Source: a virus. Taken from it: 64,000 nt of DNA. Of the stretch, positions 20,734 to 38,971 are shown one piece after another (the stretch's first letter is position 1; each line of letters starts with the position of its first letter). The stretch lies in the IMG/VR virus record IMGVR_UViG_3300028030_000005, positions 33,646 through 97,645 of that record. One strand, 5' to 3'. Under the pieces are notes generated by a model. It was not told the DNA's origin and made no database searches. It saw only the letters and a list, made by a program, of their open reading frames with translations. The position numbers and the translations under genes were made by a program.

Positions 20734-22257
20734 TTAGAAATTTCGTCCGATATTTACAAATCTTATCATCTTGCTTGGCGCATAAACGATAGGAGTACCG
20801 TACAATAATACCATAAAACGGTCGGCAGGGCTTAATTTTGCAAGCGGCATTTTCATAAGCGGAGCTAATTGTTTGAATTCAATAACATCTGTATCTCCTT
20901 GTAACAATAATGCTTCCTCAGTTCCAGGCAACCAACGGTTTCTGTCACGTACTTTACCAGCTGCTGCTCCATCCACTCCATTTGCTAACGAACCACGTTT
21001 TGTATCAGTTCCTGCTGCAGGAACGACCATAATCGGATACATTGTGGTTTTGTTAAATGGTGTTGACGGGTCTTTTAATGAGCGATATACAACATATGCG
21101 TTCGGTGTGTAAGCACCTGCAGTTGCTGTAAATGTCAAATCGACACTATCGTCAGCATTTGCGATGGTTACTGTGTTGCCTACTTGCGTCATTGCACTTT
21201 CGCCATATCGGTTAATTGCAGATACTGCATAGTAGTAATCGCCGATTCCGTCAGCAAATTTGCTGTGTCCGTCATTTGCTACTACATCAGCTGATACTGC
21301 TGTAGGTGCAGAAGGTGCTTTGGATGAGCTTGCCGGAGCTACTGAAAGTTTGCCAGGTGCTTTTGCTGCAAAAATGTCGTATTCGAAATCAATCAAACCG
21401 TACATTGATTGGAATTTACTGATGTGCTGACCAGTGGTCATTCCTTTAGTATTAGCATTTTGACTTCCACCAATCATTACGCGTTGTTTAGCGTAGAATT
21501 CGGTTGCAAAGTCAGATAATACTACAGGCGGCGCAATCAATAAGTTCGCTTGGGCAAATTTGTTCAATAATGTTTGAGCCCCTTTCTCAAGGTTTTCTTG
21601 TTTCAAGACACTTCCTCGCAGGTCAATCACTAACTCAGAATCCATATATTCATCTAAGTTGGCAAATTGGTCGTTGTTCATATGCTGCGCATATAAGCCG
21701 TTCCACTCTTGCTTAACGACTTTTTCATCACCGGTAAATAAAGCTCTATCCGCTTTTCTTAAAATCCACAAGATTCCGTTAGTAGTTTCTCTACGAACGA
21801 TATCTCCGACGTTGGTATTTACGAGCTGCATTTGATGTGTGACGGATTTGGTAACACCCAAATACTTCACGTGTTCAGCTTTACGAACGTATTTAGAATC
21901 CTCTTCTTCCGGCAATTCGCCTTCGTTATTGAATCCTCCACGGTCGCTACCGTAGCTCGTTAATTGGTTGTACTCCTCAACAGTGTTAAACGCTGCTGTT
22001 TTCGGGAAACGTTTCCAGAAGCGAATATCGCTTTCTTTAAACGTAATAAGTTTCAAAGAGCTTTCCAAACTCTCTGTTTTCAATGCACCACCATTGGTTT
22101 GATTTCCGGACATATCTCCACCTTGAAGCTGTCCAGCTTCAAGCGCTTTTGATAATTCAGCAAGTTGGTCTGCCGTTAAATTGGCTTGTCCCATTGCTGC
22201 TCCGTCAAATCCTGCACCGTGTTGGTAGTCTGCAAGATTTACTGAAAGATTTTCCAT
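20734..22257 (-). CDS. Major capsid protein (Herelleviridae-like)
   Basis: ELSKALEAG, GGALKTESLESSLK, VEEY, FN3-like insert (YYYAVSAINRYGES), LAPLMKMPLA; followed by a terminator. Confidence 0.92.
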   Translation of the reverse strand: MENLSVNLADYQHGAGFDGAAMGQANLTADQLAELSKALEAGQLQGGDMSGNQTNGGALKTESLESSLKLITFKESDIRFWKRFPKTAAFNTVEEYNQLTSYGSDRGGFNNEGELPEEEDSKYVRKAEHVKYLGVTKSVTHQMQLVNTNVGDIVRRETTNGILWILRKADRALFTGDEKVVKQEWNGLYAQHMNNDQFANLDEYMDSELVIDLRGSVLKQENLEKGAQTLLNKFAQANLLIAPPVVLSDFATEFYAKQRVMIGGSQNANTKGMTTGQHISKFQSMYGLIDFEYDIFAAKAPGKLSVAPASSSKAPSAPTAVSADVVANDGHSKFADGIGDYYYAVSAINRYGESAMTQVGNTVTIANADDSVDLTFTATAGAYTPNAYVVYRSLKDPSTPFNKTTMYPIMVVPAAGTDTKRGSLANGVDGAAAGKVRDRNRWLPGTEEALLLQGDTDVIEFKQLAPLMKMPLAKLSPADRFMVLLYGTPIVYAPSKMIRFVNIGRNF

Positions 22258-22321: not shown

Positions 22322-23755
22322 TTACTTCACTAATGTGATGCCTAATTGTTGAGCTTTAGCAATTAAATTTTTACCAACTGCACCGGCTTGCTCAAACATC
22401 ATAATTTCAGATGCTACAACTTTATCAGTAATTCCTTCGTCGGTTGTAATTGCTTTTGTCAATGTGTCGAGAATCTGTCTTTTATCTTTTGTGACCGACA
22501 AAACGTTTCCGGCTGGCTTTTTGTTCAAATCGTCATCAAAAGATTTTTCAACATAACTCTTTGTAGTGACACTTTTTCGTTGAACGGGCTGAGATTCGAT
22601 ACTGTCTAATCTTTCATTCAAATCACTGATTTGGTCCATCAATGATTTTTGAATCGTTCCTACAGCTTCGAATTTCTCATCAAGTTCGTCGTGAAGGTGC
22701 TCGTTATGTTCTTTTAACAATACACCAATTCCTTTGAGCAATTTACTTGAATCCACTTCACCATCAGAAATATCTTTCGATGCAATTTGTCCTTTCAAAA
22801 CTTCGATTTCAGCTAACGCTTTTTCTAATTTTTGTTCAACAACAGAAGCTACGTCCGTTGCTTGTTCAGTATTTACATCAGCTCCTACTTCAGTAGTGGC
22901 TGTATCGTCCGGAGTTTGTTCTGTTGTAGCAGCCTCTGCTGGTTCGTCAGTTAATTCTAACGCTTGTAATGCTTTTTCAATTGCTTCCTCAGAAACTTCT
23001 TTGATGGTTTTTTTATCTTTTGCCATATTGATTGATTTTTCAATTTTTAATGTAAGTTCGTATAATTTTTCGGCACCTACAATTGATATATGTGGTAAAT
23101 CTCGGAAAATTTTTTCAAAGAATGCACCTTTAGAAAAAGTTTTTTTAACTCCCTCTATCAAATCCTCCTTTGCTAATGCACGTCCGCTTGCTGATTCTGC
23201 CGACAGCGCTTTTTCACGAGTTTCGTCGTCCATATTTTCGTATGCCGATAATTTATTAAAATTATGTGATTTGATAATTTCTGTTACTGTATCACTATTT
23301 TTGGGGTTTGGAGTGATTGCACATCCTGTAATTCTTGCTTCAAGCACTTTCGCAGGATTGTCTTTATCTCGTTTTAAAACTTCTCCTTCGATAGATAATC
23401 CGAGAGCCATCCCTTGTGCTTCAAGTAATTTTTGAAGTTCGTAAATCTGTTGTGCTTTAACACTATCTGGAAATAAGTAGAATTCAATAACCAACTGCCC
23501 TTTACTGTTTACTTTTGCAGATATAGGTCGTCCAACTAATGCGAGTGGGTCTTTATTGGTTTGATGATTCCAGTTCATATATCCGTACTTCAAAAAGTAC
23601 GAGACATCAAATCCTTTCGGGTCAAGATATTCTCCGTCCGCATCCAACGAAGGTGTTGATGCGATTCCTCGCATTTTCATCACCTTAGAATTGCCTTCAC
23701 CTGCTTTTACCAGGTGTAGTGTTGCGTTAAACTTTATCGTTGAATTGCTCGTCAT
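22322..23755 (-). CDS. Prohead protease fused to scaffold-like coiled-coil region
   Basis: GIASTPSLDADGE, NWNH, GLSIEG, CAITPNPKN (HK97-like protease), then an acidic coiled-coil C-terminus. Confidence 0.88.
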   Translation of the reverse strand: MTSNSTIKFNATLHLVKAGEGNSKVMKMRGIASTPSLDADGEYLDPKGFDVSYFLKYGYMNWNHQTNKDPLALVGRPISAKVNSKGQLVIEFYLFPDSVKAQQIYELQKLLEAQGMALGLSIEGEVLKRDKDNPAKVLEARITGCAITPNPKNSDTVTEIIKSHNFNKLSAYENMDDETREKALSAESASGRALAKEDLIEGVKKTFSKGAFFEKIFRDLPHISIVGAEKLYELTLKIEKSINMAKDKKTIKEVSEEAIEKALQALELTDEPAEAATTEQTPDDTATTEVGADVNTEQATDVASVVEQKLEKALAEIEVLKGQIASKDISDGEVDSSKLLKGIGVLLKEHNEHLHDELDEKFEAVGTIQKSLMDQISDLNERLDSIESQPVQRKSVTTKSYVEKSFDDDLNKKPAGNVLSVTKDKRQILDTLTKAITTDEGITDKVVASEIMMFEQAGAVGKNLIAKAQQLGITLVK

Positions 23756-24296
23756 AACTTTCGTCTAAAAACCACTTATTCAATCTCTGCTTCAATACCT
23801 TCAATACAAACGATGTTTCTGTTAATCCTAATTTGTCGAGATTTTCAAAAACACTTATCAATAGTTGAACAATAATCATATTGAATACTGCATAAAATAG
23901 CCATTTGTGTATATTGATATCGAAATCAAAGACTTCAGGAGTTGGCAGATGTTTTGCAAATATATTCAATACTCCTAATATAACTGTATATGCCCCTATC
24001 TTTATAATCATTCTACCGAATTTCCTCGATTGAATTTTTTGACCTTGTTTCAGAGATGCCATTATGCCGGTCACAAACTCTCCTACAAGTAAAATTATAA
24101 ATGCTACGTAAACCAATGCTGTCACACCTATATACTCCTCTATTAATGTTGCTAAATAACCGGTCAGTGTGATTAGCAACACTCCAAAAGCAGATAGGTG
24201 CTTATAGTGAAATGTGCTATTTAGAAAATCGTCTATATTTCTATATCCGAATCCTTGTAACCAATAGGTTACCCAGTATATAACACTATTAATCAT
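23727..24296 (-). CDS. Holin-like membrane protein
   Basis: Multiple TM helices; EFVTGI...IQSRKF...K...ISVFENL pattern of the phage holin 4 family. Confidence 0.65.
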   Translation of the reverse strand: MINSVIYWVTYWLQGFGYRNIDDFLNSTFHYKHLSAFGVLLITLTGYLATLIEEYIGVTALVYVAFIILLVGEFVTGIMASLKQGQKIQSRKFGRMIIKIGAYTVILGVLNIFAKHLPTPEVFDFDINIHKWLFYAVFNMIIVQLLISVFENLDKLGLTETSFVLKVLKQRLNKWFLDESYDEQFNDKV

Positions 24297-24644: not shown

Positions 24645-24824
24645 TCACCAAACCGGTTGCTTCAATAATTCAATTTCAATTTGCGCTTCAATCGCTTCTG
24701 TACGAAGTCTTATCAGCTCAGCTTTACATTTTTCGTACTTTTCTGCTGCTTTAATTAGCTGTAAATTGCGCTTTTTTAGTTCCATTCTCGCTGGACATAT
24801 CCAGTTTTTAATTTTTTCAATCAT
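24645..24824 (-). CDS. Small coiled-coil protein (59 aa)
   Basis: Hand-read ORF MIEKIKNWICPARMELKK...LLKQPVW with ATGA overlap. Confidence 0.45.
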   Translation of the reverse strand: MIEKIKNWICPARMELKKRNLQLIKAAEKYEKCKAELIRLRTEAIEAQIEIELLKQPVW

Positions 24825-25786
24825 ATCTCTGTTGTTTTTCCGTTTACAGTTACTTTTACTTTACTACGTCTTTTAACTTTTCGAGTCCATTTTGTCTTAT
24901 CGTGAACAAATTGACTACCGTCCCAATACCATTCTCCTGTTTTTAATCCTTCTAACGTAAATCCATTTGGTACGTCCATTAGCGTACATCTGCAGTAGGG
25001 ATGTGTCGGTCCCACTACCGGTTTTAGCTCTTTTACCTTTCGACCTACATTAGTGCCATTTTGTTTCAGGTCATATAATTTGAATAATATTGGTTGCGAA
25101 CCCACCCCTGCTGTTGTGTATAATCTTTGACAGTGCGGACACGCACCTGCATATACATCTTTATAAACTAATGCATCTGCTCCTTTCTTTCGTTGTACCA
25201 TCATTGCCCTACCTTCATCAAATGCTGTGTGCATTACGTAGTCAGAGATTCTTGCTAAATCACGATTCCATTGTTGTGTTTTCTTTCCTATTGTTGACGT
25301 TACTTCTGTCACTGACTTTCTATCTGCAATTGCTTTTGCAGCTGCGTCAGTGACGAGTTTACTGTGCTTTACAGTATGTCGTTTTTTATCTGCAAATACT
25401 AATTCATCTGCAATTTGAGACTTGATTCGATTCGTTAATCGTGTAACGTCGTTATATGTTTGAGACTTAATGTTTTTCAGAGCAGCTCTTTCTAATGGAT
25501 TCAACTTAAACATTTTGCCAGAGCTGATATATTGTTTAAGCTGCTTGTAGTCCATATTCATCACAGCAGCTTTCCCTAATGCTTCTGACAACAATCCAAA
25601 CTTGAATGCGTGTTCAACGACACTTGTATCTTTCGCAATCGATTTATAGTTTATTCCTGCGTTTGTTAAGATAGATTTATCTTTTGATGATAGTACTTCT
25701 GTTCCTACATTATAAGCAATGAAGGTTAGTGTGTATCTATCTAAAATAGACAATAACTCTTGTATTTGATTTGGATTTAGAATCAT
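24821..25786 (-). CDS. MuF / gp7-like minor head protein
   Basis: RDLARI...G, CPHC and HPYCRC C-terminal MuF motifs. Confidence 0.8.
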   Translation of the reverse strand: MILNPNQIQELLSILDRYTLTFIAYNVGTEVLSSKDKSILTNAGINYKSIAKDTSVVEHAFKFGLLSEALGKAAVMNMDYKQLKQYISSGKMFKLNPLERAALKNIKSQTYNDVTRLTNRIKSQIADELVFADKKRHTVKHSKLVTDAAAKAIADRKSVTEVTSTIGKKTQQWNRDLARISDYVMHTAFDEGRAMMVQRKKGADALVYKDVYAGACPHCQRLYTTAGVGSQPILFKLYDLKQNGTNVGRKVKELKPVVGPTHPYCRCTLMDVPNGFTLEGLKTGEWYWDGSQFVHDKTKWTRKVKRRSKVKVTVNGKTTEI

Positions 25787-26001
25787 AATTTATCTAACTC
25801 ATCTAATACAATGTAGTAGAAAGAATACATTTCGTATTCCAACAACACGTCTGCAAGATTATCCAGAACTACCTCCTGAGAAAATTGTGTGTTGTTTATT
25901 TTTAGCCATTGTCTGAATTCAGACATCGACATATCGCTTAACAATAATCGTGGGTCTGTTTGCAATTTAGCAGCTTTATTATTTATTTGCTCAACTGTCA
26001 T
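25783..26001 (-). CDS. Hypothetical protein
   Basis: 72-aa ORF with coupled start/stop overlaps. Confidence 0.5.
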   Translation of the reverse strand: MTVEQINNKAAKLQTDPRLLLSDMSMSEFRQWLKINNTQFSQEVVLDNLADVLLEYEMYSFYYIVLDELDKL

Positions 26002-26516
26002 TGTATCTCAGATATCGTGATTAAATCATCGCCGTCACCATTACTTTCTTGATACCAGTTATCTATCACTTCCTCTAAGCTATCAGCGCCCCACTCGTCT
26101 AATAAATCATCAATCTCATCCTGGCTATATCCTTGAAATCTGTTATGCAATAAGTGTTGAATCACATCACTCCCTCTCCCAATATAAACTTCATTGCCTT
26201 CTCCAGGACCGTATCTTTCGTAAGGAGTTATTGTGATTGCATACGTTTTGTTCAAATCAATGTCTTTAACTGATTTAACGTCCTTTAAACCTTTGGTTGA
26301 TGGCGCTCGATTAATGTTTTTAGCACTATATAACTCTTTTTTAGATATTGATTTCGGTTTTTTGTCTTTTTTAACAGGAACCCACTTACCTTCTGCAACC
26401 TTCTTAAATCCACGAGAAACGGTTCCTATAGGAACCTTTCTCCCCTTCTCTATGTTACCTAAAGTAGATATCTGCTTTACTACAGATTCTTTATGATGTT
26501 TAATAGTATTATCCAT
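25998..26516 (-). CDS. Putative internal head protein with IEK|G-PIGT leader
   Basis: N-terminus LGNIEKGRKVPIGTV...EGKWVPVKKDKKPKSIS shared with 27668-28141. Confidence 0.6.
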   Translation of the reverse strand: MDNTIKHHKESVVKQISTLGNIEKGRKVPIGTVSRGFKKVAEGKWVPVKKDKKPKSISKKELYSAKNINRAPSTKGLKDVKSVKDIDLNKTYAITITPYERYGPGEGNEVYIGRGSDVIQHLLHNRFQGYSQDEIDDLLDEWGADSLEEVIDNWYQESNGDGDDLITISEIQ

Positions 26517-26628
26517 TTTTAGACTGTTTTTTACGTTTTACTAATTCAATTCCTATCATTTTTTTATAAATACCGTCGTCCATACTACGATATGCTGTTA
26601 ATAATTGTTGTGTTGTGTATTTTTCCAT
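26509..26628 (-). CDS. Small hypothetical protein (39 aa)
   Basis: Hand-read ORF MEKYTTQQLLTAYRS... fills the gap. Confidence 0.35.
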   Translation of the reverse strand: MEKYTTQQLLTAYRSMDDGIYKKMIGIELVKRKKQSKNG

Positions 26629-26640
26629 AACTTTTTGATT

Positions 26641-27663
26641 TTATGCCATCATTGCTACAGCAACTTCTTTCCAATCTAAATTCGAACCAGATTCTGTTAC
26701 TTTTTTCTTGATTAGTGCTATTTGTCCTAATGTTCGCGCATTCAAATCGCCTATATCGATTTTGTCAGAAATCTCTTCTAAGAAGTCGATTGCTGCTTCT
26801 CTATCATCAGCACTAACCTGAATCGGATTGCCGTGATTGTCTTGAAACGGCATCTTGTGAATGAACGTTCTCATTCGCTCGATTGTTTCTTTTGGAGTCA
26901 TTGAAAGGTCGATTGTTAGTGAGCGCGACCTTAGTGGCTGCGGCATTTCTTTTGCTGATAAATTGCTGATGAATATTACCTTTCCTGCGAATGTGAACCT
27001 TTGTGGAATTGGCTCTCCGTCAGAATCCTTAATTTTCTTTGCAGAACCATACGAAATTGTACCATCTCCTGTAGTATCTAACGCTCCTTTCAAAATATTA
27101 ATTGATGTTGGGTCCTCCAGTACACTATCACAATCGTCAAATATTAATAACTTACCATTATGTTCGTACAACGCTTTGTATAGTGCTGTCGGAGTTGATT
27201 TTCCTGTGATTTTGATATAATCATAGCTATCAGAACCAGGCAAGTGTATGTCCTCGAGATATTCTTGTAGGTTGTGACGTTTCAGCGATTGTGTGACTGT
27301 GTACGTCTTTCCTACACCACCTATACCATATGAAATTGCACTTTTACCAAGTCCATCGATTACCATATCGATAAACAACTCATAACTTTGCCAACGTTCG
27401 TGTACTCCTACAGGCGGTAATTTACTGACTGCTTTATCAAGTTCTTGTAGCTCTTTTTCTACTGAGTCATCTTTCGATTGATTATTCGAAGGTAGTGGTG
27501 AGTGATATTTCCATCCTTGTGCTGTTTTGATGAACATTCCATTCGGACGCTTTTTGATAGTTCCTATAGGTAGTGCGCGTGCTTTTTCAATAACATTACC
27601 AATATTTGACTTCACAATATTGTTAATTACTTGTTGTTTATGTTTTCTTATAATATCGTCCAT
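26641..27663 (-). CDS. AAA+ ATPase with IEK|A-PIGT leader
   Basis: Walker A GIGGVGKT, Walker B LIFDDCD, sensor FISN, arginine finger LRSRS; N-terminal IEKARALPIGTI. Confidence 0.8.
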   Translation of the reverse strand: MDDIIRKHKQQVINNIVKSNIGNVIEKARALPIGTIKKRPNGMFIKTAQGWKYHSPLPSNNQSKDDSVEKELQELDKAVSKLPPVGVHERWQSYELFIDMVIDGLGKSAISYGIGGVGKTYTVTQSLKRHNLQEYLEDIHLPGSDSYDYIKITGKSTPTALYKALYEHNGKLLIFDDCDSVLEDPTSINILKGALDTTGDGTISYGSAKKIKDSDGEPIPQRFTFAGKVIFISNLSAKEMPQPLRSRSLTIDLSMTPKETIERMRTFIHKMPFQDNHGNPIQVSADDREAAIDFLEEISDKIDIGDLNARTLGQIALIKKKVTESGSNLDWKEVAVAMMA

Positions 27664-27667
27664 TATT

Positions 27668-28141
27668 CTAAATTTTCTTTTTTATAATTATAGCTGGCAT
27701 TTCGGTTCCGTACGCTCTACCCCTACCAGCTGTTTGAATCGTTATCGTTTCCCATACATCGAATCCTAATTTTTTAGCATAGTTTTTTATCTTTTTGTAT
27801 TTTGGATTATTTAAGAAAATAGTAACAGTTAATATATTTTTATTTTTCCCACTAAAAAGTTTTTTGTAATGGCCGCTATACAACTTCCCGTATTCTTTTA
27901 TTTTACTCCAATCTTGATTTAGTATTTCTTTATTTCGAGTTTGGATATCGTCGAGAGTGTCTTCTACAGATATTGATTTTGGTTTTTTGTCTTTTTTAAC
28001 AGGAACCCACTTACCTTCTGCAATTTTCTTTAAACCATTATGAACTGTTCCTATAGGCACTTTTCGTCCTTTCTCAATATCGTTCCCTAACGACATAATT
28101 TGTTGAGTTATTGCTAACCTATGTTTTTGAATGTTATCCAT
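27668..28141 (-). CDS. Putative internal head protein with IEK|G-PIGT leader
   Basis: LGNDIEKGRKVPIGTV...EGKWVPVKKDKKPKSIS; C-terminus unrelated to 25998-26516. Confidence 0.6.
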   Translation of the reverse strand: MDNIQKHRLAITQQIMSLGNDIEKGRKVPIGTVHNGLKKIAEGKWVPVKKDKKPKSISVEDTLDDIQTRNKEILNQDWSKIKEYGKLYSGHYKKLFSGKNKNILTVTIFLNNPKYKKIKNYAKKLGFDVWETITIQTAGRGRAYGTEMPAIIIKKKI

Positions 28142-28968
28142 TACTGCTTGATTTTCAAAGTTCCATTATCGTTCCACAAAGCTCCTACTGGCAATCCACT
28201 ATCTGATGTCGGCAATTCCGGCATAATTATCTTTGGAGTGTTGAATGTTAGATGCTTAGCTCCTCCCATCATTATCCCTTCAATGATAGATTTGAGTCCA
28301 TCTGTTTGGTCAGGATTTCCTATTTTAATCACACCAATTTTGTTTGGACCTGATGCAAATAGTCTATGTCCTATATACAAATTGTATGACCCTGTCTGCA
28401 ATCCGTTTCCTGCTTCATTGCCAATGGCAATATTGTGATGTCCAGTAGTTATACTTCGTAAAGTGGACACTCCTAAAGCAATGTTATGATATCCTGAGCA
28501 TCTCCATAAAGTTTCTTTTCCAATAGCAATATTGTAGTTTCCGGTTATTCTTTGTCCAGCACTATATCCAATTGCAACGTTGTGGTGTCCTGCTGTATTC
28601 ATATATAACGAATAGCTACCAAAACTCGTATTTCCGTTACCGGTTTTATTAGAATATTGAGAACCATATCCTATTGCCGTGTTATTATCTCCAGAAAGCT
28701 GTTTATTCATCGTCCAGTGACCTATGAATGTATTATATTTGTTCTTTGTTGCTATAAGGTCGGTATCAGTTGCTCCAACTATCAAATCTTTATTGTCTTC
28801 TAAACTCTGCAATCCTGTTGCGATAATTCTCCCATCATCGTTCAATGAAGGAAATTGCGAAATTATCCAGTATAACTGCTTTTTCAATTCGTCGTCAGTC
28901 TCTTGCAGTGAATACTTGCTCTTACTTATTGCTTGAATTGCTTCTAATATTACATCTATTCTTGCCAT
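28141..28968 (-). CDS. Fibre-like protein with about 14-residue N-x-A-I-G repeats (YadA-head-like beta-roll)
   Basis: NTAIG, NTSFG, NVAIG, NIAIG, NIALG, NIAIG, NLYIG repeats; C-terminal LPTSD...GALWNDNGTLKI. Confidence 0.7.
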   Translation of the reverse strand: MARIDVILEAIQAISKSKYSLQETDDELKKQLYWIISQFPSLNDDGRIIATGLQSLEDNKDLIVGATDTDLIATKNKYNTFIGHWTMNKQLSGDNNTAIGYGSQYSNKTGNGNTSFGSYSLYMNTAGHHNVAIGYSAGQRITGNYNIAIGKETLWRCSGYHNIALGVSTLRSITTGHHNIAIGNEAGNGLQTGSYNLYIGHRLFASGPNKIGVIKIGNPDQTDGLKSIIEGIMMGGAKHLTFNTPKIIMPELPTSDSGLPVGALWNDNGTLKIKQ

Positions 28969-29366
28969 TATTTAATCATTTTTAATACATCTAAATTCAA
29001 AGATAAAATTTCTTTCGGTAATTTACTCAACTCAAACCATTTCATCTGTGAGAATTCGTTATTTGGCGTTAATTTCGGTTTTTTATCGTTTGTTTTTAAA
29101 ACGAAAAACGCAACGAATGGTTTAGTCGGGTGTACAATCATTGGCAATCTCAAAGGATGTGCTATGATGCCAGCTTCCTCATATGTTTCACGAATTGCAC
29201 TTTGAAGTGGATATTCGTTTCCATCAACTCCACCTCCAGGAAAAACCCACTTTCCGTCTCGTTCATCGTTTTGTCCTACTGACATTCCAAGAAGCAGGTT
29301 GTTATCATTATCAAATACGATAGCGACTGCTGCTTTTATTTCTTGCTTAAATCCTTTGAGTATCAT
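28968..29366 (-). CDS. Nudix hydrolase
   Basis: Nudix box GGGVDGNEYPLQSAIRETYEEAGI. Confidence 0.92.
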   Translation of the reverse strand: MILKGFKQEIKAAVAIVFDNDNNLLLGMSVGQNDERDGKWVFPGGGVDGNEYPLQSAIRETYEEAGIIAHPLRLPMIVHPTKPFVAFFVLKTNDKKPKLTPNNEFSQMKWFELSKLPKEILSLNLDVLKMIK

Positions 29367-32300
29367 TAGTAAATTGTTCTAATATATTCCGCAACTTTTT
29401 TTGGACTGCGGTAGGTCTTTATTGCACTGTTGTAATGCTTTTTCATCATATTATCCACATCCTTCGGATTATTTCCGTATTTAACCAACAACTCTCTTAC
29501 CTTTGATTTATGTTGCGCCAAAACTTCATCAGATTTCTTTAAAGTTAGTTCGTGAATATTATCATCGATTTCTTTTCCTACAACATATTCCTTTCCATTA
29601 TGTTTAATAGTTTCGCCTGGTTTGTAGAGTTTTTCCTCTGTATCGGGGTCGAGAACATCGATTGTTAATTTTCCTCCATCATCAATTACGAAAGGATGTT
29701 CGTCAAACGAAGCCAGTTCGTCTTTGTATAGTTTCTTAGCGTCCGCATCGATTTTAGCTGCTTTGTCAGGATATTTTTCTTTCAGCTTTTTAATTTCTTG
29801 CTCTACTGCGTACGGAATATCGTGTTTGTCTGATGCTGCTCTATCGAGCGCAGTTTTTAACTCATTGATAGAGTATTTTGATGAGTTAGATTTCTTTTGT
29901 TTATTATTCATATGGTCAGACACAAGGTTTCTCAAGGTAGATGACTTCATTGTGTCTGTATGATACACTCCATTTTTCTTAGCATATTCTGTCAACTCAT
30001 CTCGTGACATCGATGCTGCAGTTTTCTTATCAGACTTACTCGCTTGATGATGTTGTTGAGCTTTTTGACCAGTTCCTTTGCCGTAATATTTCCAACCAGA
30101 CGATGTTTTTATGTATTGACGTCCACCAAACTTTTTAACTGTTCCGATTGGATGAATTGTTCGTGCTTTTTCGATACCGAGAAGTTCAAATGCTTTTGAG
30201 ACTTTGTCATCAAAAATATTTTCGTTGTTTATAGTTTTTGCTCGTACGAGACCTTCAACTATATCGACAACGTCATCTTTTGAAAGATTTTCGTGCCACG
30301 AACCTTCTTTGATGTTGTGTTTAGCTATCGACAAAGACAATCCTCTTATAGCAGCCGATTCTTTCGAAGGAGTCCAATTAATTGTTTTTTTGATTTTGAA
30401 ATCTCTGTTTTCTAATCCAGCATCTTTTAATGAATCGACTACGCTTTTGATTTCGTCGTCAGAATAGTCACCTACCCAGTCTCTTACCAGATTAAATAAT
30501 TTTGGAGATTTCTTGCCTTTCTTTTCGTTAATTTTTTTATCCCACTCATCATCTTTATAACCATAATTAAATTTTGACTTCAATTGCTCGACTAAATCTT
30601 TATAAAGTTCGTGATGGTCAGTGTTGTTTTTGTCAAGACCTTCAATTGCTTCAATGAGTTTTTTGGATTTTGGATTGTCGAGAATGTCTGTGAATGAAGG
30701 TTTTTTATCTCCCATTTTTGGTTCCTTTCCTCCTCCACCAACTCCGTGTTGAGATGGTTTTTTGTTAGAATCTTTTTTAGCTAAAAATTGTTGGTTCGGT
30801 GTGAATTTACCGATTATTTGCCCTCCTTGTTTTTCGAACTGACTTACTCGATTATTTGTTGTTCTGATGAATTTGCCTTGATATTTTACTACTGAATAAT
30901 TTTCTGGCTTATTCAGTTTCCCAGCAGGATTCGTAGCTCTTTCTTTTGATGCGTAAATTGCATCACCATAAGACGATTTCGGTTCTATTGTTTTAGAACT
31001 TACTTTTGAACTACCATCCTTGACCGGTTTCCATTTACCGTCACCTTGTTTTTGGTATTTCTTTCCTTTCCATTGACGGATTGTTCCGACTGGATATGCT
31101 TTAATAAGGGTTTCCTCTGCTGTGAAGGTTTTAATTGCTTTTTCGATATTAGATTCTTTTAACTTCGCAACTAATCCTGAATCCGGATTGGCGATATAGA
31201 CATTGCCATCAGAAGCTAAATATATTGCAGTATCATCATCGAATCCCGTTACATCAAGTCTTTTAGCGTCTCCATTCAACACTTCATCTTGAATTTTACC
31301 ATCAACCTTATCGTTGGTAGTGTAGTCGTTTATAACGTCGTCGTAATCAAGTGAGCCATCAGACATCATATCCTCTATTTCATCAATAGTATTTTGTATT
31401 CCTGGAGACGGTTTGTTGGGCTGCTTTTTAGCTGCTTTTTGACTGTCTGAATTCCCGATAATTTTGTCAATTTTTTTATGAGTTCTGTCAAGATTTCCTC
31501 CATATTCATATCCCCAAAACATTGGATGTGGGTATTTTCCTGCCCCGATTTTCTTTGTAATTTGACTTATTTTACTATGTGCACTATTTACTTGCTTGAC
31601 CATTTTATTATGTTGGTCCATATCATTCCATTTCGCTTTACGATATTTTTCTACAAATTCCTCTTCGAGTTTATGGTACTTGTCGAGAAGTGGTTTTAAT
31701 TGTTTTAAGGAATCAGCAGACCTTCCGTTTTGCTTAACGTCTCTAAGAATGTTTTGTAAATCTTTTCCTAATTGAGTCCCTTCTTTAATATAGTCTTTAA
31801 TATCGTCAGCAGTAATAGGATTTCCGTCGGGACCTTTACCAATCACGTTTTCATCGCCTCCCTTATCCCAAAACTTACTGTCTGATTTCTTTTGAACACC
31901 AGCATCTACGAGCTTTTGATGAGTTTCGTCAAGTATTTTTGCAGCTTGTTGCATTGCTTTTTCATCTTTATCTGCATTCGCAACGTTCCATTTTCTTTTA
32001 GCTCGTACGAACTTTTCTTTTAATCCTTCAACTTCAGCAGCTTTCTTTTCATCAACGTTCTCAGTTTCTTTTGGAACGTGCTTGTCGAGATATTCTTTTG
32101 ACGTCTTGTTTAATTCTTTCTCACCGTCTTTAATTGTTTTCGAACGCTCATCGTCTTTACCGAGTTTATCAAAATCGACATCATCTTTACCAGCTGTGCT
32201 GTGTTGATGTTCGACTAATTTATTTACCACATCTTGTGGTACCTTATCTTGTGCTGCAGGATGTAATTCATTATAGATTTCGTGAGCTGCATCAATATCT

Positions 32301-32605
32301 CCAGATTGAAGTTTTTGTTTTAATAACGTTAGTTGAGCGATGTCTTGTTTTGTTACACTCGGTTGATTGTCGTCGCTGCCGCCAGGCTGCTTCCCGGTTT
32401 CATCGTCCGTTTTCTTTTCTTTCGGGTCAGTAACTGGTATCCATTTGCCACCGGTTTTTTTATATTTTTTACCATTCCATTCACGAATTTCTCCTTCTTG
32501 TCCGAGCTTACCTCCTTTCTCAATGGTATCTGACGTTGGCAAAACAATGCTATTTGCAATGTTTTTGATTATTTGTTTACGTTTGTTGATAATGTTGAAA
32601 TCCAT
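29366..32605 (-). CDS. Large Lys-rich putative internal head polyprotein with three copies of the K|A/G-P(I/V)GT...G(K)W motif
   Basis: IEKGGKLGQEGEIREWNGKKYKKTGGKWIPV; LIKAYPVGTIRQWKGKKYQKQGDGKWKPV; IEKARTIHPIGTVKKFGGRQYIKTSSGWKY. Confidence 0.6.
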   Translation of the reverse strand: MDFNIINKRKQIIKNIANSIVLPTSDTIEKGGKLGQEGEIREWNGKKYKKTGGKWIPVTDPKEKKTDDETGKQPGGSDDNQPSVTKQDIAQLTLLKQKLQSGDIDAAHEIYNELHPAAQDKVPQDVVNKLVEHQHSTAGKDDVDFDKLGKDDERSKTIKDGEKELNKTSKEYLDKHVPKETENVDEKKAAEVEGLKEKFVRAKRKWNVANADKDEKAMQQAAKILDETHQKLVDAGVQKKSDSKFWDKGGDENVIGKGPDGNPITADDIKDYIKEGTQLGKDLQNILRDVKQNGRSADSLKQLKPLLDKYHKLEEEFVEKYRKAKWNDMDQHNKMVKQVNSAHSKISQITKKIGAGKYPHPMFWGYEYGGNLDRTHKKIDKIIGNSDSQKAAKKQPNKPSPGIQNTIDEIEDMMSDGSLDYDDVINDYTTNDKVDGKIQDEVLNGDAKRLDVTGFDDDTAIYLASDGNVYIANPDSGLVAKLKESNIEKAIKTFTAEETLIKAYPVGTIRQWKGKKYQKQGDGKWKPVKDGSSKVSSKTIEPKSSYGDAIYASKERATNPAGKLNKPENYSVVKYQGKFIRTTNNRVSQFEKQGGQIIGKFTPNQQFLAKKDSNKKPSQHGVGGGGKEPKMGDKKPSFTDILDNPKSKKLIEAIEGLDKNNTDHHELYKDLVEQLKSKFNYGYKDDEWDKKINEKKGKKSPKLFNLVRDWVGDYSDDEIKSVVDSLKDAGLENRDFKIKKTINWTPSKESAAIRGLSLSIAKHNIKEGSWHENLSKDDVVDIVEGLVRAKTINNENIFDDKVSKAFELLGIEKARTIHPIGTVKKFGGRQYIKTSSGWKYYGKGTGQKAQQHHQASKSDKKTAASMSRDELTEYAKKNGVYHTDTMKSSTLRNLVSDHMNNKQKKSNSSKYSINELKTALDRAASDKHDIPYAVEQEIKKLKEKYPDKAAKIDADAKKLYKDELASFDEHPFVIDDGGKLTIDVLDPDTEEKLYKPGETIKHNGKEYVVGKEIDDNIHELTLKKSDEVLAQHKSKVRELLVKYGNNPKDVDNMMKKHYNSAIKTYRSPKKVAEYIRTIY

Positions 32606-38219: not shown

Positions 38220-38261
38220 GACCGAGACCTATAACAATGCTGTGCTGATATTGCACTGTTG

Positions 38262-38335
38262 TAGCAGGGGCCGGACTCGAACCGACGACCTTGAGATTAT
38301 GAAACTCACGAGCTAACCATCTGCTCTACCCTGCG
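38262..38335 (-). tRNA. tRNA-Met (CAT), initiator-like with atypical anticodon stem
   Basis: CGCAGGG/CCCTGCT acceptor with C1:U72 mismatch, A73, T-arm GTCGG-TTCGAGT-CCGGC, anticodon loop TTCATAA; CCA not encoded. Confidence 0.88.
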
Positions 38336-38340
38336 ATGTG

Positions 38341-38630
38341 TGGAGATGCTGGGATTCGAACCCAGGTCCCGTACAATTTGCAAATCAAAGTTTTATACAG
38401 CTTAATAGGGCCGACTGACGTCGTGATTTCCACCAGTTAGTTTTGTGAAAACTAACAAAACGTATTGTTCTCTACGCAGCTATCAACTCTGTTGATGTGT
38501 TCATTTTATGAACAATAAATCTGCTTTTGTTACTATTATTGCCAGTTATTTTAATTCACCGTACTTTTTAACGAGAGCTACCTCGGCTGAACTTTGAATT
38601 ACTCGTTGCAGGTCAATGCCGTACATCCCC
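38341..38630 (-). ncRNA. ssrA: tmRNA
   Basis: 5' GGGGATG pairs with 3' CATCTCC-A including G3:U70; T-arm CTGGG-TTCGAAT-CCCAG; ATAACT-GGC resume site; tag GNNSNKSRFIVHKMNTSTELIAA* (38472-38543). Confidence 0.92.
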
Positions 38631-38652
38631 ATATGTTAATGAACTATTATTT

Positions 38653-38890
38653 GGAAATTTGGTGGTGTACTCGCGAATGACTACACCACCTTATTTCCTA
38701 TCAAACACAAAACTATATCAATCCGGTATCTGCTTTATGTTTGATAACCATTGCCGTACTGTTTCTGTTACTTTACACTTCACCACAACGCTCCGTGTAA
38801 TAACGTTTCTGTTCCAGTTGCTACCAGCTAAACGTGTCTATTGTTGTGGCTCACCACGCGTCGCTCAAGTAGCTAAGAATTAACGGTTGG
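38653..38890 (-). ncRNA. Candidate structured ncRNA between tRNA-Ile and tmRNA
   Basis: Several stems (9 bp perfect; 15 bp with G-U pairs valid only on the minus strand; 7-8 bp); no convincing ORF. Confidence 0.5.
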
Positions 38891-38898
38891 TTTTCTCG

Positions 38899-38971
38899 TG
38901 TTGTGAGTAGGACTCGAACCTACGACCTCGTCCATATCAGGGACGCGCTCTACCAACTAAGCTATCACAAC
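38899..38971 (-). tRNA. tRNA-Ile (GAT)
   Basis: GTTGTGA/TCACAAC acceptor, CGTCC-CTGATAT-GGACG anticodon arm, GTAGG-TTCGAGT-CCTAC T-arm; CCA not encoded. Confidence 0.92.

Follow-up and report, generated by a model that had tools for sequence, protein, structure and literature searches.

A 64,000-nucleotide stretch of viral DNA (the window; bases 33646-97645 of the 97.6-kb IMG/VR virus record IMGVR_UViG_3300028030_000005, which CheckV rates as 94% complete) contains, between its portal gene and a gene for a MuF-like minor head protein, four open reading frames (ORFs) with a common short cassette that, judged from sequence, probably marks proteins for loading into the phage head. The cassette is a portable unit of ∼35-40 amino acids (aa), comprised of the motif [D/E]-x-[L/I]-E-K followed by G, A, or S, plus a strongly basic β-hairpin domain (consensus P-I-G-T-[IV]...K-K-x-x-x-G-K-W-x-P-V) with a Lys-rich tail, and is located either after a short, poorly conserved helical leader at the N terminus or between domains. 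The best explanation as a whole, to which we assign a probability of about 0.5, is that proteins bearing the cassette would be packaged cargo that is cut by the head protease and delivered with the DNA.

All four tagged ORFs lie on the minus strand, and the similar start, I-E-K-[G/A] motif, and basic module of ∼30 aa that an earlier note on this DNA had described in them are real. Each ORF begins with M-D-x(1-2)-I, followed by a K/H/R-rich stretch, with I-E-K-[G/A] at aa 22, 25, 22, and 28 of the 172-, 340-, 157-, and 1079-aa proteins, respectively, and extra copies at aa 487 and 811 of the 1079-aa protein (Table 1). In each case the motif precedes a P-[IV]-G-T...G-(K)-W module with the consensus P-I-G-T-[IV]...G..[YF].K...G(K)W. 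No seventh copy was detected in the window or in the whole 97.6-kb record with a hidden Markov model (HMM) of the six copies, the next best match having E > 1. The cassettes of the 172- and 157-aa genes are 84% identical over 119 nucleotides of DNA, which suggests a recent duplication, and the third cassette of the 1079-aa protein shares 47-59% identity with copies in Chryseobacterium phage MA9V-3. Outside the cassettes, the C-terminal parts of the four proteins are mutually unrelated, as originally described. The payload then named an AAA+ ATPase proved to be a P-loop nucleoside triphosphatase (NTPase) of phrog_1250 (E = 4e-38), homologous to NrdC.10 of T4, with a marginal match to Pfam AAA_14 as to the AAA assignment itself. 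This NTPase and a neighbouring untagged NUDIX gene represent the sole recognisable activities in the tagged cluster of the window; the 1079-aa protein contains no domain recognised by Pfam, PHROG, or NCBIfam.

Alignment of 296 non-redundant copies on the Lys residue revealed K in 100%, G/A/S at position +1, and K/R at +2, with E at -1 in 56-73% of copies, L/I/F/V at -2, and D/E/N at -4. Beyond position -5 no conservation was observed, in N-terminal or internal copies, and within the module the positions G, K, G, and W are invariant. The site is found upstream of 322 of 339 non-redundant hairpins; the 17 exceptions mostly occupy the second or third place within a tandem array, so a hairpin can occur by itself. 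Leaders anchored at Met contain ∼1 bit per position or less and vary in length from 4 to ∼50 aa, with 27 of 76 beginning M-[DEN]-[DENQKS]. The helical leader had been put forward as a shared part of the tag; in the alignments, however, it is weakly conserved and variable in length, and the family-wide unit is the [DE]-x-[LI]-E-K-[GA] site plus the hairpin. The M-D-x-I-x-K-H leader is a trait of this phage and its near relatives, since leaders across the family are poorly conserved. In several leaders of other phages (P0126, P0135, P0086, P0005, P0173, and P0192), the final hydrophobic-x-K-[GAS] motif is preceded by two or three more, a pattern that would fit cutting of the leader into pieces.

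The AlphaFold2 model of the 172-aa protein, calculated with a 32-sequence alignment, consists of a helix (aa 2-19), a loop containing I-E-K-G with a predicted local distance difference test (pLDDT) score of ∼67, a small β unit or hairpin (aa 31-50; pLDDT ∼90), a disordered Lys-rich linker, and a small C-terminal domain. The I-E-K-G residues are located between the helix and the confidently predicted hairpin, outside the hairpin itself. Net charge per residue is +0.14 in the module plus tail, compared with 0.00 in the rest of the carrier proteins, and this positive charge, together with the predicted hairpin, agrees with the earlier description of a small basic β module. Searches with the model (Foldseek against the PDB and BFVD, and VIA-align) produced no meaningful match, the best hit, an anti-CRISPR protein with a Z score of 4.3, being within noise.

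A profile built from the six window copies was searched against 1.84 billion representatives of protein clusters formed at 50% identity and matched 1,106 clusters at E ≤ 1e-3 and 73 at E ≤ 1e-10; a word-indexed search with the six-copy profile gave 153 proteins. Most matching clusters have 2-4 module copies, and protein lengths range from 125 to 2,551 aa. No consistent family in Pfam, PHROGs, or NCBIfam was found for the tagged proteins, the isolated cassettes, or 32 short carriers, a profile search of PDB sequences with the module returned nothing below E = 0.6, and the ESM Atlas gave sub-threshold leads only. Pfam DUF7210 was considered as a relative of the hairpin and rejected, with one relative matching at E = 0.002 and 18 bits (cut-off 27) and none of the 32 other carriers matching. 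When the full 1079-aa protein was compared with GenBank phages, it matched only MA9V-3, which is the sole isolate found with the module.

The module is fused to at least 22 Pfam families among 49 relatives, NUDIX being the commonest (7 of 49). Fused domains in the 59 relatives scanned comprise NUDIX, LPD1, SAM lyase, InPase, Topo IB, DUF5661, ART-PolyVal, Kinase-PolyVal, Zeta toxin, RelA/SpoT, mCpol, C5 methylase, poly(A)-polymerase-type nucleotidyltransferase, ddrB-ParB, RadC, SNF2/ResIII, GNAT, LRR, and MuF_C. Attachment to so many families, rather than always to one constant domain, bears out the proposal of a modular tag on interchangeable payloads. Among 184 carriers, with a near-identical 863-aa family counted once, the cassette is at the start of the protein in 124; the other copies are internal (215) or C-terminal (5, of 344 in all). 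In multidomain carriers, copies are positioned between recognised domains, for example between SAM lyase and RelA/SpoT or between LPD1 and GNAT. The abundant 863-aa family combines the cassette, MuF_C, and InPase in one protein. No relatives of this family were found in IMG/VR, and the InPase-bearing virion protein of Cellulophaga phage phiST is without the cassette.

Tagged genes are located in the head-morphogenesis cluster of at least six divergent phages (the window, MA9V-3, G001, G003, L011, and L019), and the capsid proteins of the phages in which this context is conserved are only 26-55% identical to that of the window. In MA9V-3 the module is found in four proteins encoded between the portal and protease genes, including an NrdC.10-type NTPase with an N-terminal copy, a NUDIX protein with a C-terminal copy, and a two-copy protein beside the MuF-like gene. 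IMG/VR record G001, whose portal and capsid proteins are 28 and 29% identical to those of the window, respectively, has four tagged genes directly after the portal gene, and in G003, L011, L012/L014, and L019 the tagged genes adjoin MuF-like, protease, and capsid genes. True Herelleviridae have their portal, protease, scaffold, and capsid genes side by side, and thus the tagged genes occupy an expanded portal-to-protease interval. A degenerate DNA pattern for K-K-V-A-E-G-K-W-V-P-V matched 10 loci in IMG/VR and none in 185,579 reference bacterial genomes. Seven of the nine IMG/VR records with the module encode a phrog_752 capsid protein, the other two being a 4-kb fragment and a 67%-complete contig.

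The units also differ in arrangement between relatives. On a 35-kb contig from a close relative, unit 3 of the 1079-aa protein corresponds to a stand-alone gene of 318 aa that begins with an M-E-N-L-I-K leader, and units 1 and 2 are connected in another way. The internal and the leader-bearing forms of a unit are consequently interchangeable. The NrdC.10-type NTPase family, which is found in ∼1,300 phage records or genomes and includes the untagged nrdC.10 gene of T4-like phages, is tagged only where it lies within the head cluster, in the window and MA9V-3. Its homologue in Bacteroides phage DAC19 is untagged and 80 kb from the portal gene. At the N terminus of this DAC19 protein (gene DAC19_82; L008:3779-4843), the cassette is replaced by Y-S-D-T-P-Q-N-R-K-L-G-R-V-G-M-T-Y, which may be another small N-terminal module.

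Motifs resembling the cassette site are a feature of the head proteins of this lineage. In seven capsid proteins (∼26% to 55% identity to that of the window), a variable N-terminal stretch of 20-36 aa ends in an invariant [E/D/L]-L-x-K-A-[L/M] (7 of 7), and the predicted maturation cut in the window capsid protein is L35-S36-K37/A38 (22144-22155). Counts of hydrophobic-x-K-[GAS] were compared with 1000 shuffles. The scaffold part of the window protease fusion has 10 such motifs (2.0 expected), and the proteins encoded between the protease and capsid genes of Staphylococcus phage SscM-2 and Bacillus phage Nigalana have 8 (1.3 expected) and 10 (1.9 expected), respectively, with the observed number reached in 0 of 1000 shuffles for each. 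In these two Herelleviridae the proteins are both 318 aa long (SscM-2, L027:1876-2829; Nigalana, L028:1821-2774), the motif is mostly V-[SE]-K-S, and V-S-K-S is found at aa 28-32 of the capsid N termini; such V-x-K-S motifs predict a cleavage rule for the Herelleviridae prohead protease. The window ORFs contain 25 instances of the narrower motif [ILVMF]-E-K-[GAS], compared with 5.2 expected, and the portal protein has hydrophobic-E-K-A motifs at aa 43 and 545. The T4 head protease, gp21, has I/L-x-E specificity, with a hydrophobic P3 and a fixed P1 residue (PMC12991175). As the motif is invariant in capsid N termini, enriched in scaffolds, and of a pattern like that of related head proteases, we infer that the prohead protease of this lineage cuts after hydrophobic-x-K, and that L/I-E-K-G in the cassette would be such a site.

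According to the preferred explanation, tagged proteins would co-assemble with the procapsid and would then be cut after Lys by the scaffold-fused prohead serine protease, at the same hydrophobic-x-K/small site that would serve in trimming of the capsid N terminus and breakdown of the scaffold. This cut would remove the leaders and divide the 1079-aa protein into pieces comprising aa 31-489, 490-813, and 814-1079. The mature cargo would retain the basic hairpin at its new N terminus, where the hairpin may hold the cargo on the packaged DNA, and the cargo would leave the head together with the DNA.

Several observations weigh against this explanation. Hydrophobic-E-K-A motifs are also found in non-head proteins of the window, this being a common helical tetrapeptide. 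The NUDIX and 275-aa genes, though within the tagged cluster, carry no tag, and in the 863-aa family the cassette would seem superfluous as an address tag should MuF itself direct packaging. The site is missing from 5% of hairpins, and in some N-terminal copies the Lys is preceded by no more than 4-5 residues, so cleavage is not the sole role of the cassette. The module could be tied to this capsid/protease lineage via shared ancestry and not function. Charge is the one property from which it is proposed that the hairpin may bind DNA. A literature search found no usable published cleavage specificity for this Herelleviridae-type protease family, and no proteomics or N-terminal sequencing was found for module-carrying phages, MA9V-3 included.

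The main alternative, which appears rather unlikely, is that the cassette is an uncleaved single domain with a function inside infected cells, such as attachment to nucleic acid or to a host target. L/I-E-K-G would then be a structural cap or binding residue, and the proteins would be ordinary late or early products, packaged or not. Consistent with this, the module is basic, conservation of the motif equals that of the hairpin core, as would be the case for a single unit of folding or binding, tandem hairpins lacking the motif occur, and some proteins have just M-x-L-x-I-K-A before the hairpin, where a cut would remove almost nothing. However, AlphaFold2 places I-E-K-G in a lower-confidence loop outside the hairpin, and capsid propeptides invariably show the same P3/P1/P1' pattern, which also recurs in scaffolds. 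The genes, moreover, lie inside head-assembly clusters, and the fusion partners are those predicted to be delivered by virions (PMC5512222).

A second alternative concerns which part of the cassette would do the docking. Here, the hairpin would be the true capsid-docking element, contacting the scaffold, the inner capsid surface, the portal, or a MuF-like protein, with the site merely freeing upstream parts and the helix serving as filler that provides the P-side residues; in this full form we consider it improbable. The hairpin is the best conserved and best predicted part of the cassette, the leader is barely conserved, and the NUDIX protein of MA9V-3 and a few others are tagged at the C terminus, where a cut would separate the tag from the payload; set against this is the rarity of C-terminal copies. 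As these copies nevertheless exist and the leader is weakly conserved, the hairpin is favoured as the docking element, and this alternative refines the explanation of packaged, protease-cut cargo and does not contradict it. Finally, a chance or low-complexity likeness of Lys-rich N termini with no shared function, for which one could cite the short, Lys-rich sequences and a tblastn search of GenBank phages with the 59-aa N terminus that gave no match, is ruled out by the invariant G, K, G, and W, by matches to the same profile in 1,106 clusters (with E values down to 1e-10 and lower for hundreds of unrelated proteins), and by a genomic context conserved across such divergent phages.

The earlier note had regarded the arrangement as a candidate new system. 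It is not wholly new, in that it falls within the theme of polyvalent proteins and virion-delivered effectors (PMC5512222) and resembles the capsid-targeting sequences of T4 and P1 (PMC9024508). Polyvalent proteins of phages and conjugative elements (Iyer et al. 2017) are predicted to be injected with phage DNA, and their processing was ascribed to an embedded zincin-like metallopeptidase (PMC5512222). Relatives with the cassette combine the same domains (InPase, ART-PolyVal, Kinase-PolyVal, LPD1, RelA/SpoT, NUDIX, Zeta toxin, ddrB-ParB, and MuF_C), many of them with several disparate activities in one polypeptide, and the window and five other phages encode tagged genes between the portal and the protease/capsid genes. 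In contrast to polyvalent proteins, the units in the window are mostly separate genes instead of one giant protein, and the domains are separated by a site resembling a prohead-protease cut site. A zincin-like metallopeptidase domain was seen in none of the 59 cassette-bearing proteins scanned, and the cassette matched none of the LPD families held in Pfam. It is tentatively suggested that the cassette would be a general loading-and-processing tag in phages with Herelleviridae-like heads, such that a protein acquiring it would be packed, cut by the prohead protease, and delivered with the DNA. Under this general scheme, the prohead protease might stand in for the embedded metallopeptidase proposed for other polyvalent proteins, a notion held with equal reserve.

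Of the known targeting signals, the capsid-targeting sequence that T4 uses on its internal proteins, Alt, and others (Mullaney and Black 1996, as cited in PMC9024508 and PMC12991175) is also a short N-terminal tag common to several unrelated proteins, which in T4 are those of the head interior. The T4 tag is removed by the prohead protease at the capsid/scaffold consensus I/L-x-E, for which the putative counterpart here is hydrophobic-x-K. The two tags differ in that they have no sequence similarity, the P1 residue is Lys here and Glu in T4, and the folded basic hairpin would here stay on the cargo, the tag also being internal, which implies a polyprotein logic. Furthermore, the protease/capsid lineage is a different, Herelleviridae-like one (phrog_1028/752), and the targeting function of the tag is here a putative one. 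In phage P1, the first 30 residues of the large anti-restriction polyvalent protein DarB direct it into the head and heterologous cargo can be sent there in a like manner, and no N-terminal consensus was reported for the Dar proteins (PMC9024508), whereas one recognisable cassette is common to four genes of the window and >1,100 protein clusters. With respect to MuF-fused effectors (MuF/SPP1 gp7, PF04233 and PF18819), the window gene cluster ends at a MuF-like gene and an abundant relative family joins the cassette, MuF_C, and InPase, but in the window MuF and the payloads are separate proteins.

A shared cleavable capsid-targeting tag (T4) and an N-terminal packaging signal (P1 DarB) were thus already known. 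What is new is the cassette itself, which is outside Pfam, PHROGs, NCBIfam, and PDB sequences and is common to >1,100 clusters. Also new are its double occurrence, as a tag at the N terminus and as a separator of domains, its association with a head module of Herelleviridae-like type in relatives of Bacteroidota-infecting isolates, and the putative hydrophobic-x-K cleavage rule. Phage proteins injected with DNA are hard to recognise by sequence and include anti-restriction and host-takeover enzymes. If the cassette marks injected cargo, one short profile would flag >1,000 candidate injected proteins of uncultivated phages, many of unknown function. It would also mean a second route of polyvalent-protein processing, via the head protease at punctuation sites, and it could supply a small tag with which foreign proteins are loaded into phage heads in the manner of the T4 and P1 signals. 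A general tag would explain the free swapping of injected effectors and provide a sequence rule for metagenome finds, and the proposed hydrophobic-x-K/small rule makes a prediction that can be tested directly in well-studied phages of Staphylococcus and Bacillus.

Table 1. Tagged proteins, cassettes, and neighbouring head-region genes, in window coordinates
Feature	Position	Strand	Evidence and remarks
172-aa tagged protein	25998..26516	-	Leader aa 1-24; cassette aa 19-52 (26361-26462); acidic C-terminal domain
340-aa tagged protein	26641..27663	-	Leader aa 1-27; cassette aa 22-58 (27490-27600); then P-loop NTPase, T4 NrdC.10 type
157-aa tagged protein	27668..28141	-	Leader aa 1-24; cassette aa 19-52 (27986-28087); basic C-terminal domain
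1079-aa protein, three tagged units	29366..32605	-	Single open frame; three module matches; predicted cuts after K30, K489, K813
Cassette 1 of 1079-aa protein, aa 25-62	32420..32533	-	T-I-E-K-G then hairpin; E = 1.5e-18; leader aa 1-30 (32516-32605)
Cassette 2 of 1079-aa protein, aa 484-532	31010..31156	-	N-I-E-K-A, 11-aa insert, hairpin; E = 1.2e-20
Cassette 3 of 1079-aa protein, aa 808-845	30071..30184	-	G-I-E-K-A then G-W-K-Y-Y-G-K-G-T-G-type hairpin; E = 2.9e-20
Portal protein, 570 aa	33502..35214	-	PF04860 E = 6e-28, 98.3 bits (gathering cut-off 39.1); phrog_12 E = 1e-48
247-aa protein, N-terminal hydrophobic segment	32759..33502	-	phrog_38578 E = 2e-9; between portal and first tagged gene
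NUDIX hydrolase, 132 aa, without module	28968..29366	-	PF00293 E = 5e-17
275-aa protein, Gly/Asn-rich repeats, without module	28141..28968	-	phrog_4636 E = 3e-27; phrog_6002 E = 3e-23
Probable MuF-like (SPP1 gp7-type) minor head protein, 321 aa	24821..25786	-	Sub-threshold PF04233, CRC motif, fold match
Prohead protease fused to scaffold-like C-terminal part, 477 aa	22322..23755	-	phrog_1028 E = 1e-32 over aa 22-161
Major capsid protein, 507 aa	20734..22257	-	phrog_752 E = 5e-86; full-length profile match

The ORF at 24821-25786 is probably MuF-like, as the earlier note had it, with support mainly at the level of fold and a sequence match below the Pfam cut-off. It scores 10 bits against PF04233 (E = 0.077; gathering cut-off 29.6) over profile positions 3-112, and PF04233 is absent from the precomputed Pfam hits of all 74 homologues (0 of 74). 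The family has an invariant C..C...H-P-x-C-R-C motif, of which hhalign aligns the CRC motif alone with SPP1 gp7, at the same C-terminal position. The structural model, with a predicted template modelling (TM) score of 0.72, matched BFVD entries annotated 'phage head morphogenesis domain' or 'minor capsid protein' in Foldseek with a probability of ∼1.0, but with TM scores of 0.3-0.5. The protein has no cassette and one hydrophobic-x-K-small motif only. Some homologues (P0306 and two top BFVD matches) contain a Hint/intein insertion (PF07591).

The genome is that of an uncultivated myophage with a GC content of ∼35% and nearly all genes on the minus strand; its closest isolates are the Chryseobacterium myophage MA9V-3, to whose portal protein the window portal is 47% identical, and the Bacteroides DAC phages, with Herelleviridae as more distant relatives. 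Minus-strand gene order is portal, 247-aa protein, 1079-aa ORF, NUDIX hydrolase, 275-aa repeat protein, 157-, 340-, and 172-aa ORFs, 72-aa ORF, 321-aa MuF-like ORF, 100-aa ORF, holin, protease-scaffold fusion (phrog_1028), major capsid protein (phrog_752), and tail genes. The 247-aa protein is untagged, with no match to the module HMM, and the repeats of the 275-aa protein resemble tail-spike or virion structural proteins. The start of the NUDIX gene and the stop of the 1079-aa gene overlap, an arrangement suggestive of translational coupling, and a scan for promoters and terminators across the tagged cluster gave background levels. The untagged NUDIX gene begins M-I-L-K-G, like a bare cut-site motif without a hairpin. 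The holin gene (PF05105, E = 4e-11; 23727-24296, minus strand) is inside the head-morphogenesis cluster, between the MuF-like and protease genes. A transfer-messenger RNA (tmRNA) at 38340-38630, with a tag ending ...STELIAA, is flanked by tRNA-Met(CAT) and tRNA-Ile(GAT) in the region 38261-38971 (minus strand), and a tmRNA is also shown for the MA9V-3 genome in the paper describing that phage.

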